Below are positions 1,076 to 57,271 of a stretch of DNA of 64,000 bases, in pieces. Position 1 is the stretch's first letter. Each line of letters opens with the position of its first letter. Where the stretch lies: the NCBI GenBank assembly GCA_963921275.4, contig OZ001293.3, positions 2,304,001 through 2,368,000 of the forward strand, given 5' to 3'. Source of the stretch: an uncultured Hormoscilla sp. Lineage in GTDB: Bacteria > Cyanobacteriota > Cyanobacteriia > Cyanobacteriales > Desertifilaceae. The notes beneath the pieces are model-generated. The model did not search any database. It was given only the letters and a program-made list of their open reading frames with translations, and was not told the DNA's origin. The position numbers were made by a program, and so were the translations under genes.

Positions 1076-1447
1076 GGGAAGAGTAAGTCGTAAGCCGGGT
1101 TCTGTTGTCAAGGGCTGCGGTGCAACCCTCGATGGCGGTTATCTATCTGGGACGCCTGTTACCAGACGCCTCAAGCGGTTCTTTGCTGCGGAACTGGTAA
1201 AAGACCAACCGTGGTTCCTTCGACCTTGCACCCAACCGGGGTTTACCGAGCCAGCACCTCTCGATGCTGCTGGTGCGCTTTTACCGCACCTTTGCACCCT
1301 TACCATAAATGGCGGTATGTTTCTGTGGCACTATCCTCACGATCGCTCGCACTGGGCGTTACCCAGCAAGTTTGGTCTTTCGGGAGCCCGGACTTTCCTC
1401 AGACAGACTGCAACAGTCCATCTGCAACCGCCTCCCCTACTCTTCCC
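1076..1447 (-). ncRNA. rnpB: RNase P RNA (type A)
   Basis: Minus strand has GAGGAAAGTCCGGGCT near the 5' end and AACAGAACCCGGCTTA near the 3' end; the termini pair (GGGAAGAGTA / TACTCTTCCC). Confidence 0.97.
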
Positions 1448-1460
1448 TAGATCTAGTGTA

Positions 1461-2294
<834 letters not shown>

Positions 2295-18282: not shown

Positions 18283-18598
18283 ATTAAACTAAGCCAGGGA
18301 GTCACCCCTCCGACTCGTCTTCAAAACCGGACGTGAGATTTCACCTCATCCGGCTCCTCAGTCATGCCACCCTTGTCATGGGTACCGATTGATGCCATCG
18401 CTACCGTGGGGTAAGTGCTGTCACTCCTGCACCTAGAGGGGTGGGCTTTCACCACCATCATCTAAAAGTTGTCAGGGCTAATGATACCCTGCTAGTGGTC
18501 CCCTTCCTTGACCTGTGTCAAGTTAGTTTACACTAAACGAATCGCACTCCTAGGCTAGCGTTCCGTGTTTGACCAAGTTAGGCTAGAACGAATCGCAC
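18283..18598 (-). mobile_element. Deleted group II twintron relic
   Basis: Two nested GTGCGATTCGTT starts (18598 and 18547), then partial DI joined to DV GAGCCGGATGAGGTGAAATCTCACGTCCGGTTT and DVI ending TTAGTTTAAT. Confidence 0.85.
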
Positions 18599-28574: not shown

Positions 28575-29407
<833 letters not shown>

Positions 29408-34061: not shown

Positions 34062-34692
34062 CCTCTGGGGGGACATCTCAATTATGAGATACTCCCGACC
34101 TCTGGTTCCCAGGTTCTACCTGGGAACAGTATTCGGAGGCTCCCGCCTCTAAAAATTCCATCTCGGGTTAAGTCTCTCGCATCTTTAAAAAAATGGTATA
34201 AGCTAATTGTAGCTACCCTTGACAAAATGGTATTAGAGTCTATCCGTACCCAACTGTTGGTTGATTGACTCGCGTCTGGGGTGCATCTCATATTCGCAAA
34301 TCTATCTGTAGGGGCAAAGCATTCGGACGACAAATCATGACATAAAAAGTTATGCACTAGAGACGCAACACTGCGCATCTCTAGTATAGCTACTTATCAT
34401 CCCGAATCGGTAGCTGGGTCTCTATAATCTCCGCGCGCGCCGAAGGCGATCGATATCGACTCGTTTACCCTCCGGTGAATGGTAGTAGCCGGCATCGATA
34501 ATTTTCAGCGTCTCTTGCGGGATCGCCATCCGCTTCACTATCTTTTCTCCAAATGACTCTTACTAAAATATTACACCATTATCGATTTGTCTCATAGCCC
34601 GCCCGGGGTTCAAACCCCGGGCTAATAGCTAAAGTCGGTTGAAAACCGACTTGTAGAACATTTAGAGACATTAAAATTGGCGTTAAGCCAAG

Positions 34693-34740
34693 TACCCCTG
34701 GCAGGATTTGAACCTGCAAAGACGCCGCTCCTGAATAAGC
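34693..34740 (-). pseudogene. 3' half of a tRNA with a long variable region (possibly Leu-CAG)
   Basis: ...TTCAGGAGCGGCGTCTTTGCAGGTTCAAATCCTGCCAGGGGT: T-arm and acceptor 3' strand without a 5' half. Confidence 0.55.
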
Positions 34741-34809
34741 GATCGTCGGGTGCAACGATAATACATGTAATCTAGCCCGCGCAGGCGGGCTTTGTTTGTG
34801 TAGCCCCAC

Positions 34810-35105
34810 CCAGCGTATTAGCCTTATTCCGCTGGTTCTCAATGACGACGTTTAATGAACTTTCGCTTTCGCTAGTCATGGTCACTTACTCGACGTTGAC
34901 CGGTTTTAGGCTACCAGTTTTTCGCCTTTTAACCCCGCTTTACGGATTGATGCCATCGCTACCGTAGGGGTTATGTTTTTACTCCTGCACCTGGAGAGGT
35001 GGGCTTTCACCACCATCATCTATAAGTTCTCGGGGCTAATGTAACCCCGGTAGCGGTCCCACTCCTTGACTTGTGCCAAGTCAGTTTACGTTAAACGAAT
35101 CGCAC
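34810..35105 (-). mobile_element. Group II intron 5' fragment (domain I) inserted in a tRNA gene
   Basis: GTGCGATTCGTTT start; similar to the inner intron at 18547; shares the GAACCAGCG.AATAAGGCT...CGCTGG block with the full introns; cut off at a REP-like repeat near 34810. Confidence 0.88.
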
Positions 35106-35128
35106 CCCTACCATTGAGCTATGAGGCA
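35106..35128 (-). tRNA. 5' exon (23 nt) of an intron-interrupted tRNA; identity uncertain (Asn suspected from U1)
   Basis: TGCCTCA TA GCTC AATGGTA GGG directly followed by intron GTGCG; no 3' exon found. Confidence 0.7.
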
Positions 35129-35135
35129 ATAGCAA

Positions 35136-35209
35136 CCCCCCAGGTCAGAATTGAACTGACGACCTCCTGTTCTTCACACAGGCGCTCTGACCAACTGAGC
35201 TACCGAGGG
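35136..35209 (-). tRNA. trnF: tRNA-Phe(GAA)
   Basis: Anticodon arm CCTGT GT GAA GA ACAGG; T-arm GTCAG TTCAATT CTGAC. Confidence 0.85.
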
Positions 35210-35213
35210 AAAA

Positions 35214-35288
35214 CGAGAGCGGAGGGATTTGAACCCCCAAGTCTTCAGTTTCGTAGACTGACGTGTTCTCCAGTTACACTACGCTCTC
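35214..35288 (-). tRNA. trnR: tRNA-Arg(ACG)
   Basis: Anticodon arm TCAGT CT ACG AA ACTGA; acceptor GAGAGCG/CGCTCTC. Confidence 0.9.
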
Positions 35289-35292
35289 AAAG

Positions 35293-35381
35293 CGGAGAGG
35301 GAGGGATTTGAACCCTCGACGGTTTTTTAAACCGCTCTTTCTTAGCAGGAAAGTGCCTTATGACCACTCGGCCACCTATCC
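35293..35381 (-). tRNA. trnS: tRNA-Ser(GCT)
   Basis: CTTTC CT GCT AA GAAAG, long variable arm, G73; one acceptor mismatch. Confidence 0.88.
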
Positions 35382-35385
35382 AACA

Positions 35386-35467
35386 TGGGCCAGGTAGGAT
35401 TTGCACCTACAACGCATCAAGCGGGGGTTTTACAGACCCTTGCCCACGCTAATAGGCGGGCTGACCC
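35386..35467 (-). tRNA. trnY: tRNA-Tyr(GTA), atypical
   Basis: AGGGT CT GTA AA ACCCC; T-loop TGCAAAT instead of TTCRANY; position 8 is C. Confidence 0.7.
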
Positions 35468-35498
35468 AAAATTTTTGCCCTCAAAAAATGAAGGCTAA

Positions 35499-35571
35499 TA
35501 GCCCCAACGGGAATCGAACCCGTGTCTTCTGATCGAAAGTCAGAAATCCTTGACCGCTAGACGATGGGGCC
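35499..35571 (-). tRNA. trnE: tRNA-Glu(TTC)
   Basis: TCTGA CT TTC GA TCAGA; canonical T-arm. Confidence 0.9.
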
Positions 35572-35574
35572 ATT

Positions 35575-35649
35575 TGGCGCGGGGATTAGGATTTGAACCT
35601 AAAATTCCAGTTTTGGAGACCGGAGTGTTGCCAGTTACACCATCCCCAC
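35575..35649 (-). tRNA. trnW: tRNA-Trp(CCA), CCA end encoded
   Basis: CCGGT CT CCA AA ACTGG; G73 followed by CCA. Confidence 0.88.
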
Positions 35650-35651
35650 AT

Positions 35652-35727
35652 TGGTGGCAGCGGCGGGACTCGAACCCGCATCGACCAAGTTATGAGCTTA
35701 GCGCTTTGACCATTAAGCTATGCTGCT
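35652..35727 (-). tRNA. tRNA with CAT anticodon (Met/Ile2), CCA encoded
   Basis: CTAAG CT CAT AA CTTGG; A1:C72 and A7:C66 mismatches. Confidence 0.8.
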
Positions 35728-35737
35728 CGATCGCCAG

Positions 35738-35810
35738 AGGGGAGAGCGGGAGTCGAACCCGCGATTTTCCGCTTTGCAGGCGGACGCCTTACCAACTTAG
35801 CTATCTCCCC
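35738..35810 (-). tRNA. trnC: tRNA-Cys(GCA)
   Basis: TCCGC CT GCA AA GCGGA; U73. Confidence 0.9.
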
Positions 35811-35887
35811 TGGGAGTCCCGACGAGATTTGAACTCGCATCTTCACCTTGAGGGGGTGACGGCTTCAACCAATTTGCCTACGGGACT
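35811..35887 (-). tRNA. tRNA with CTC anticodon (Glu), atypical, CCA encoded
   Basis: TCACC CC CTC AA GGTGA with C33; discriminator C. Confidence 0.7.
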
Positions 35888-35893
35888 TCGCGA

Positions 35894-35968
35894 CGAGGCT
35901 GACGGGATTTGAACCCGCGACTTCCTGTTCGACAGACAGGCGCTCTGGACCAACTGAGCTACAGCCTC
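35894..35968 (-). tRNA. trnD: tRNA-Asp(GTC), first gene of the array
   Basis: CCTGT CT GTC GA ACAGG; G73. Confidence 0.92.
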
Positions 35969-35976
35969 AAAAAAGA

Positions 35977-56400: not shown

Positions 56401-57271
56401 GTGCGATTCGTTCTAGCCTAACGTGGTCAAACACGGAACGCTAGCCCGGTTTCATTAGCCGGGAACTCTGACCGCATGGGGGTTAAATTCCCCTCCCCCC
56501 AGGTACGGGGGTGACACCGGTCCTCGGTGCTACGAAGCGACATCATCGTGGTGCTAAGCGAGGACTCAAATGTAGGATAACTGGCAGCCTAAGCCGGTGA
56601 CGCCGCTAGGAAAGATATCCAAGGTTAGAGCAGGCAAACATGTGCAAGCCTCGTTATAAGGAACCAGCGAAATAAGGCTATATGCGCTGGCCTAAAAAGG
56701 AAATGGTAGCTAGTATTAGTTTTAGACTCTGGCTAATATAGTACTCAAATAGCTCCCGGGGTATAGTGTGGACCTAAAGGTATCGCGAAATGTTGTTAGG
56801 GAACGAAGTAACCTCTCGTGTGCTGTCCATCAGGACAAGTTAGATGTTAAGCGCAAGCCACGGGGGGAGGGATGGCCCAAGAAGCGAATGCCCGGGGTAA
56901 TTCCTGGGATAACATCTACAGTAATGTAGATGATGCTGGGTAGCCAGCGCTGACGTGGGTCGGTGATACTAGGAAGCTGCTGGAATGAGTAATCCTAAAA
57001 AGCCACGGAACTAATCCGAAACGCAAGTGGAGGATAAGGTATGGATAACTGGTAAAACTGACTTGAAAATGGTGATACTAACGGTTATCAGAACAACCAC
57101 TCGCTAAACCAGGAAAGGGAAGAAAAGACAGGCGGCAAGGGCTAACGGAAGTAATTCCTATTAAGTCTACCTATGAAAAGGGCCTAGTACCCAGTAGCCG
57201 GATGCGGTGAAAATCGCAAGTCCGGTTCCTCAAGGGAGGGTCGGGAAGCGATTCCCGGCTCGACCCCATCC
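56401..57271 (+). mobile_element. ORF-less group II intron type 2
   Basis: GTGCG start; DI homologous to type 1; DV GCCGGATGCGGTGAAAATCGCAAGTCCGGTTC; 3' end at 57269-57271. Confidence 0.9.

Follow-up and report, generated by a model that had tools for sequence, protein, structure and literature searches.

A truncated group II intron in the D-arm of an array tRNA-Asn gene and related insertions into tRNA genes of Hormoscilla

In the genome of an uncultured Hormoscilla sp., one gene of a tRNA array breaks off within its D-arm and continues directly into the 5' end of a group II intron. How did an intron of this class enter a tRNA gene, and does it belong to a lineage that homes to such sites? 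The original prediction, made from this locus, envisaged a bacterial group II lineage that homes to tRNA D-arms, uses dispensable array tRNAs and is possibly a model for the origin of plastid tRNA introns. These points were examined in the 64,000-nt stretch that contains the locus (the window), in the window's genome (G000), in its four congeners (G001 to G004) and in wider genome and metagenome samples. The features of the window are collected in Table 1.

Table 1. Coordinates of the array remnants, the intron fragment and other features of the window
Feature	Position	Strand	Content or basis
Surviving upstream part of the tRNA array	35135..35969	-	Asp, Glu(CTC), Cys, Met, Trp, Glu(TTC), Tyr-like, Ser, Arg(ACG), Phe
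tRNA-Asn(GUU) 5' exon, nt 1-23	35106..35128	-	TGCCTCA-TA-GCTC-AATGGTA-GGG
Group II intron 5' 296 nt (GUGCG and part of domain I)	34810..35105	-	Homology; common end at query position 296
EBS2 CATTGAG, intron nt 262-268	34838..34844	-	Hypervariable 7-mer between conserved flanks
First dispersed repeat copy (~65 nt)	34745..34811	.	Abuts the truncated end of the intron, 1-2 nt overlap
tRNA-Leu(CAG) 3' 57 nt, next surviving array piece	34687..34743	-	87.7% identity to G003 and G001 arrays
Second dispersed repeat copy	34595..34664	.	~85 BLAST hits in G000
Conserved flank downstream of the array	34447..34568	-	94% identity to G003, 91% to G001
Further group II domain V/VI match	2217-2294	+	Rfam
Further group II domain V/VI match	18283-18358	-	Rfam
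Further group II domain V/VI match	28575-28652	-	Rfam
Further group II domain V/VI match	57193-57269	+	Rfam
RNase P RNA gene	1076-1443	-	Rfam

ARAGORN and Rfam located nine tRNA genes on the minus strand of the array, and neither gave a match within 34810-35128. A marginal Tyr-like gene (35386-35467, 30.2 bits) lies among the nine, so that the description of the split gene as the eleventh of the array fits nine intact tRNAs, the Tyr-like gene and the Asn fragment. As seen, tRNA-Phe (35210-35135, minus strand) is followed by a 6-nt spacer and then by the 23-nt exon, which comprises the 5' strand of the acceptor, U8 and A9, the 5' strand of the D-stem, the D-loop and 3 nt of the 3' strand of the D-stem. 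The exon joins the intron without a gap (GTGCGATTCG), and the intron start directly downstream of it reads GTGCGATTCGTTTAACG, confirming that a 23-nt D-arm exon (35128..35106) abuts the start of a group II intron (GTGCG at 35105-35101). Of a complete tRNA-Asn cloverleaf with its GUU anticodon, nt 1-23 alone are left in the window.

The homologous array of G003, with 95% identity to that of the window, carries an intact, intron-less tRNA-Asn(GTT) gene after tRNA-Phe, beginning TGCCTCATAGCTCAATGGTAGAGC. The window exon matched the start of this gene at 22/22 nt and, because of this match and the position after tRNA-Phe in G003, corresponds to the 5' end of the array tRNA-Asn. One exon difference was observed, GGTAGGG in G000 versus GGTAGAG in G003. 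The homologous arrays examined read GAG or similar where the window exon has GGG, and therefore one substitution must be assumed. The intact gene of G003 represents the empty site of the window insertion. When the Ser-Arg-Phe-exon stretch was used as query against 60 relatives, the array match covered 21/23 exon nt in 13 genomes, and no intron (no GTGCG 3' of the D-arm) was found in any array tRNA-Asn examined among those 13 arrays. The gene is intact, or has an uninterrupted D-arm, in the arrays of G044, G021, G005, G018, G031, G025 and G060. Long tRNA arrays (L-arrays) are defined, in the available text of PMC4758250, by a minimum of 20 tRNA genes and no fewer than 2 such genes per kb. With nine intact genes the window array falls below this threshold, and homologous arrays hold 16 genes (G003, partial locus) and 20 genes (G048); judged from this likeness, the window array is a decayed member of the long tRNA arrays.

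Other irregularities were noticed in the homologous arrays. In that of G048 (L033 977-1527, minus strand), a 25-nt tRNA 5' fragment follows tRNA-Phe and is succeeded by a Cys-rich ORF of 159 aa, which ends ...CNRCHVEIH and runs into an intact tRNA-Asn. Pfam assigned no significant family to this ORF, which is possibly a free-standing homing endonuclease, a kind of gene that has been discussed for L-arrays (PMC8421152). Moreover, the arrays of G037 (L037) and G009 (L040) contain a tRNA-Phe whose anticodon loop bears a hairpin insert of ~24 nt, identically placed in the two genomes.

Next, the intron fragment was compared with its relatives in G000. It shows 73-84% identity to many other group II 5' ends of the genome, the best identity to any other copy being 83-84%. 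A genome search with the fragment gave 40 matches (40 of 198 candidates scored), and blastn gave 131 hits, among which 68 had an intact 5' end (alignment starting no further than 5 nt from the first query base); 43 of these 68 extended to query position 290 or beyond. The 68 copies start with GTGCGA (67/68) or GTGTGA (1/68), each preceded by a different sequence. Full-length relatives measure ~2.36-2.4 kb and have a domain V/VI (Rfam RF00029) and a protein with RVT_N, RVT_1, GIIM and HNH domains. The fragment, about 1/8 of a full-length element of ~2.37 kb, lacks domains II-VI as well as the protein ORF. All alignments that reach the fragment's end stop at query position 296, window position 34810, and this shared end of homology bears out the truncation point originally proposed. 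Rfam, whose group II models cover domains V/VI only, found no domain V/VI or other group II match in 34300-35128. Lacking the catalytic domain V/VI, the fragment is not a functional intron and the copy is dead; EBS1, domain V and the 3' exon are all lost, as had been claimed. The family is present in all four congeners, with hardly any members elsewhere in the taxonomic family, and its class is probably chloroplast-like (IIB).

To be matched to its tRNA site, the intron should carry exon-binding sequences complementary to the D-arm, as the original prediction held for EBS2. In a MAFFT alignment of the 68 copies, the hypervariable segment is flanked by the conserved CGTCGT and AACCAGCG (AACCAG). 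In the window copy it is the exact reverse complement, 7/7, of exon positions -13 to -7 (CTCAATG, 35112-35118; IBS2). A simple anchor found the 7-mer in 47/68 copies, in which Watson-Crick pairing between the 7-mer and the exon of the same copy averaged 4.17/7 at positions -13 to -7 and 1.57-2.15 at ten other registers. Since the family-wide pairing peaks at exon positions -13 to -7, the hypervariable segment was assigned as EBS2, and the predicted complementarity to the D-arm stands with the register backed by these 47 copies. An arithmetic estimate places the chance of a 7/7 match at a fixed place at ~6e-5. As for EBS1, it forms the loop of a conserved hairpin (GGTCATTGGCGG...CCGACCAAT) ~56 nt past AACCAG in full-length copies. 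An ungapped scan gave a weak maximum (2.41/6 at offset 56, the next being 2.09), the position of the loop being variable, and by eye the hairpin loop pairs 6/6 in several copies. This site lies beyond intron nt 296, and EBS1 is therefore lost from the window copy, where its partner IBS1 would be GTAGGG (35106-35111). No copy in G000 carries an EBS1 complementary to GTAG(A/G)G or a matching EBS2, and thus no donor was found in that genome.

The exon-intron junction might alternatively be an assembly artefact or a chance recombination joint rather than an insertion, given that the genome is full of family repeats and that a dispersed repeat lies at the 3' break. Reads bear on this in two ways. 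Three runs of one study (X1-X3) yielded a contig identical to 35011-35420, which crosses the junction with 95 nt of intron; it supports the 5' junction, although the runs may be the assembly's own source and hence not independent. The same runs also contain a contig identical to 34560-34624 but leave the middle of the fragment uncovered, with no match of 90% identity or more to 34850-34907 or to 34676-34733. Read support is thus confined to the 5' junction, and at the truncated 3' side their strain may differ in structure. A further run, X5, contains the repeats and the Leu(CAG) piece only, and its repeat-repeat joints could stem from other loci. Nevertheless, an artefact would have to reproduce the EBS2 match at exactly the family-wide register, and the contigs of the three runs cross 35105/35106 without differences. 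Mis-joining through repeats is ruled out because the fragment is unique (at most 84% identity to any copy). We therefore regard an artefactual junction as highly improbable and retain the insertion as the explanation of this junction.

On the truncated side of the insertion, the first dispersed repeat, of which 34811-34770 is covered by ~160 BLAST hits in G000, marks a deletion or rearrangement junction; a below-par Rfam "CRISPR-DR28" match (34773-34796) falls inside it. The G003 array continues after tRNA-Asn with Gln, Gln, Lys, Leu, Leu, Pro, Leu(CAG), Leu(AAG) and Met, and the second dispersed repeat of the window occupies the place of the last two. Altogether, ~2.07 kb of intron, the tRNA-Asn 3' exon and ~9 downstream tRNA genes are lost. 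The same array in G001 has a different deletion, indicating that the arrays decay independently, and the window copy also documents the decay of a supernumerary tRNA array. On the plus strand, the second dispersed repeat contains a hairpin that resembles a tRNA T-arm (CCCGGGGTTCAAACCCCGGG).

A full-length member of the family was found in a second D-arm, that of the trnL(UAA) gene of G003 (contig C58; L180 2099-4710, minus strand). It is inserted after a 23-nt exon, GGGGGCATGGCGGAATGGTAGAC, i.e., after AATGGTAGNN, at the same place as the window copy, and provides the complete copy at a tRNA D-arm that the original prediction had sought. This copy measures 2,363 nt, with domains V/VI scoring 58.6 bits and an ORF of 571 aa (RVT_N, RVT_1, GIIM, HNH); its EBS2, CATTACG, pairs 6/7 and its EBS1 loop, TTCTAC, pairs 5/6. 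The 3' exon restarts with GCTACGGACTT and leads to the classical group I intron (RF00028, 70.7 bits), which lies in the anticodon loop, so that one gene harbors a group II intron upstream of a group I intron. The flanking sequences share 90-96% identity with the trnL locus of G000, where the gene has the group I intron only, and the trnL(UAA) D-arm is uninterrupted in G000, G001, G002 and G004. Both D-arm targets share AATGGTAG and are split five nt past G18G19, and both EBS2s start with CATT.

An intron-less tRNA-Leu(UAA) copy was also observed in G003 alone among the five genomes (C149:9430-9516; L215 131-217). It equals the spliced trnL exons except at two D-loop positions within IBS2/IBS1, and a templated CCA follows its 3' end, which the intron-containing trnL is without. 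It resembles a retro-copy of the mature tRNA or, alternatively, an allele immune to homing. No synteny with G000 is seen in its flanks, and a second strain in the G003 assembly may be its source.

To search for further tRNA hosts in G000, we took 495 GTGYGA sites, loosely defined, and matched the sequence 5' of each against 322 tRNA sequences. Three hits emerged: the window copy, a 13-nt chance match and C1:4994687. The last belongs to the only detectable tRNA-Arg(UCU) gene of the genome, located outside the window (C1:4993833-4994725; L228) and split between nt 38 and 39. An ORF-less family member of 835 nt (RF00029, 46.8 bits) interrupts the anticodon loop after a 38-nt exon (GCCCTCG...ATTTCTAA), and the 3' exon TCCCTTGGCCGTAGGTTCGAACCCTACCGGGGGCG comes next; exons joined in silico were called tRNA-Arg(TCT). 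EBS1 pairs 6/6 at the canonical hairpin, and EBS2 makes 5 Watson-Crick pairs and 1 G-U pair of 7. The anticodon arm of tRNA-Arg(UCU) is uninterrupted in G001-G004, no uninterrupted one occurs in G000, and the exon-intron junction is absent from the 60 relatives searched. By a rough, post hoc calculation (~131 sites, ~4.3 kb of tRNA genes in 7.03 Mb), ~0.08 tRNA hits were expected in G000 versus 2 seen. Another group II 5' end begins 2 nt 3' of the tRNA-Arg(UCU) gene.

Among the 54 tRNAs that ARAGORN called in G000, Asn(GTT), Arg(TCT) and Leu(TAA) are missing. In this genome, the housekeeping gene for tRNA-Asn(GUU) (C1:2857980-2858318; L227) is interrupted in its anticodon loop by a group I intron (RF00028, 84.9 bits); tRNA-Asn is not known to have been described as a group I intron host. 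Elsewhere on the same contig, at C1:2121560-2121960, tandem partial tRNA-Gln-like duplicates, in units of the 3' two-thirds, follow an intact copy.

Overall, we consider it very likely that the window fragment is the relic of one retromobility event in the array tRNA-Asn(GUU) gene, later truncated. It would descend from a hyper-proliferated, target-diversifying family, the full-length members of which encode a reverse transcriptase, a maturase and an HNH endonuclease. The target of the intron ribonucleoprotein would have been the sense strand of tRNA-Asn(GUU) in a horizontally mobile long tRNA array, recognised through the EBS2-IBS2 pairing observed here at 7/7 positions and, as we infer, an EBS1-IBS1 pairing of the EBS1 now lost. 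Retrohoming or retrotransposition would have followed, that is, EBS-IBS-guided reverse splicing between tRNA nt 23 and 24, within the 3' strand of the D-stem, and copying into DNA by target-primed reverse transcription; the intact intron would have been spliced from the array transcript. A later deletion or rearrangement, with the small dispersed repeat at its edge, would have removed intron nt 297 onward. The same or later events, in a presumed order, would have taken the Asn 3' exon, Gln, Gln, Lys, Leu, Leu, Pro and the 5' part of Leu(CAG), and also Leu(AAG) and Met. The array tRNA-Asn would thereby be dead and the fragment unable to splice, with Asn decoded via the separate gene that has the group I intron. 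The insertion would be species-specific, and within the genus the family would have recently entered tRNA genes at least three times, this case included.

In the window copy, the insertion lies at nt 23/24, EBS2 matches the exon and the truncation came later. Ordinary retrohoming or retrotransposition fits this locus because of the pairing rules, the domains of the intron-encoded protein and the clean filled and empty pairs, namely, trnL(UAA) in G003 versus G000, G001, G002 and G004 and tRNA-Arg(UCU) in G000 versus G001-G004. Points against this account are the loss of EBS1, domain V and the 3' exon, the GGG substitution that has to be assumed and the lack of a donor copy in G000.

As described above, the same D-arm position is occupied in two tRNA genes of two congeners, each split after exactly 23 nt. 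The fragment might accordingly come from a dedicated sub-lineage that homes to tRNA D-loops, reads the near-universal AATGGTAG and hops between tRNA genes at one position; the common target and the shared CATT of the two EBS2s speak for it. We evaluated the sequence contexts of related insertions by pattern searches. The search of 401 genomes of the order gave 7 places in 5 genomes, with 2/7 in a tRNA context; that of the five genomes of the genus gave 14 places (2/14); and a further search of 401 genomes gave 11 places in 9 genomes (2/11). In each search the places with a tRNA context were the window Asn copy and the G003 trnL copy and no others, which again favors such a sub-lineage. On the other hand, no D-arm case outside the genus was found in the genome, phylum-sample or metagenome pattern searches. 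The pattern of EBS2 plus its flanks, applied to 401 genomes of the phylum, about half of them small ones belonging to distant families, returned G000 and one non-intron place. Two metagenome scans gave 0 and 13 loci, none with a tRNA context. A 16-nt junction motif, run over genome contigs, matched at least 116 loci and a tRNA-like 5' flank was present at 0 of 116, the motif being too permissive. One candidate in G000, C1:1189685 (exon ...tgcctcacagcttaacggagtggtagtt), appeared tRNA-like by eye and was rejected; no cloverleaf was seen and its intron is a short degenerate piece.

The relationship of the two D-arm copies was assessed with a maximum-likelihood tree of 48 distinct 5' segments, excluding copies short of nt 286, duplicates and five long-branch sequences from other genomes. 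The two copies fell in different halves of the tree (split support, 94/96), and their nearest relatives, with 84% and 89% identity, occupy non-tRNA sites, both of which oppose the dedicated sub-lineage. Nevertheless, an AU test did not reject monophyly of the two (p=0.337), and the comparison is limited to 296 nt, with a long end branch of the Asn copy (0.27). There is also an organellar precedent, a founder spread in Chlorokybus mtDNA proposed in the available text of PMC1894977. On balance, a dedicated D-loop-homing sub-lineage is a plausible reading that we nonetheless hold to be doubtful. The idea of a lineage homing to tRNA D-arms, as first put forward, thus survives in part. The trnL D-arm copy and the tRNA-Arg case are in its favor; the ~130 copies of G000 sit almost all in non-tRNA sites, contrary to such a lineage. 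The proposed use of dispensable array tRNAs found no support, as every D-arm examined in the 13 arrays is uninterrupted and the other two hosts are chromosomal housekeeping genes.

Returning to the preferred reading, a single retromobility event of a proliferating family, group II introns have entered tRNA genes of one genus in three recent events, each confined to one species, and two of these share the same D-arm position. One insertion shares its gene with an ancient group I intron and one lies in the apparently sole tRNA-Arg(UCU) gene. A bolder proposal, which we put forward tentatively and think rather unlikely, is that the family is actively colonising tRNA genes. In that case AATGGTAG would serve as a portable homing site (nt 23/24, two hosts), the anticodon arm of a third gene would have been entered as well, and the single-copy tRNA-Arg-UCU of G000 and trnL-UAA of G003 would depend on group II splicing. 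If true, this would be a living re-enactment of organellar tRNA intron gain, including that of plastid trnG-UCC at the same D-arm position. These loci offer a tractable bacterial system for group II splicing from tRNA precursors, for retargeting among conserved tRNA motifs and for the origins of organellar tRNA introns.

The plastid trnG-UCC gene of land plants reportedly contains a group II intron in the D-stem after a 23-nt 5' exon, as Deno and Sugiura are said to have described in 1984. This intron is ORF-less and vertically inherited. The likeness concerns a group II intron in a D-arm after 23 nt, and it could suggest that the D-arm introns are ancestral or sister to the plastid intron. 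The family's domain V, in addition, scored best against Rfam plastid D5 models (RF04357, 56-65 bits). However, the best of these matches was the ndhA/ndhB model and not that of trnG, the hosts here are Asn and Leu rather than Gly, and congeners have empty sites for all three tRNA insertions, which are recent, mobile and limited to single species. A specific kinship with the plastid trnG-UCC intron is, in our judgment, very unlikely, and we regard the resemblance as a parallel by position alone.

The retromobile element itself is of a known proliferating cyanobacterial kind, and it is the tRNA host that is unusual. According to the available portions of the respective articles, Arthrospira platensis NIES-39 has at least 150 group II intron copies (PMC2853384), Thermosynechococcus contains another proliferating set (PMC2882425), and cyanobacterial group II introns are mostly of the CL type (PMC8919778). 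Like these, the present family comprises many diverged copies with or without an ORF, an intron-encoded protein with RT, X and HNH domains, copy-specific EBS1 and EBS2 that fit the local exons, and common truncated copies. Unlike them, it has tRNA genes as hosts, which go unmentioned in those portions of PMC2853384 and PMC8919778. Bacterial group II introns are described as lying mostly outside housekeeping genes (PMC4424553, available text), and the accessible parts of PMC4424553, PMC13578239 and PMC1894977 mention tRNA hosts of group II introns for organelles only. Our search of the main texts of freely accessible articles turned up no report of a group II intron in a bacterial tRNA gene.

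Bacterial tRNA introns, in what is available of PMC4033280, are described as group I, with trnL-UAA and tRNA-fMet as cyanobacterial hosts and no bacterial group II row in its Table 1. Both kinds are self-splicing introns in tRNA genes, and the trnL-UAA genes of G000 and G003 carry a group I intron; they differ in that group I introns, a different ribozyme class, sit in the anticodon loop. With the long tRNA arrays, the window array shares a tandem, same-strand run of supernumerary tRNA genes and a patchy distribution, its relatives holding 16-20 genes. It differs in having decayed to nine or ten genes and in its intron, which is unreported in the accessible accounts of such arrays. The closest counterpart of a recurring tRNA position is organellar. 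In the mtDNA of Chlorokybus atmophyticus, group II introns reside in ten tRNA genes, 8/10 of them at one site, and the authors propose a spread from a founder intron (PMC1894977, available text). One intron position recurs in different tRNA genes in both systems, an organellar anticodon-loop site in Chlorokybus and a D-arm in the free-living bacterium studied here.
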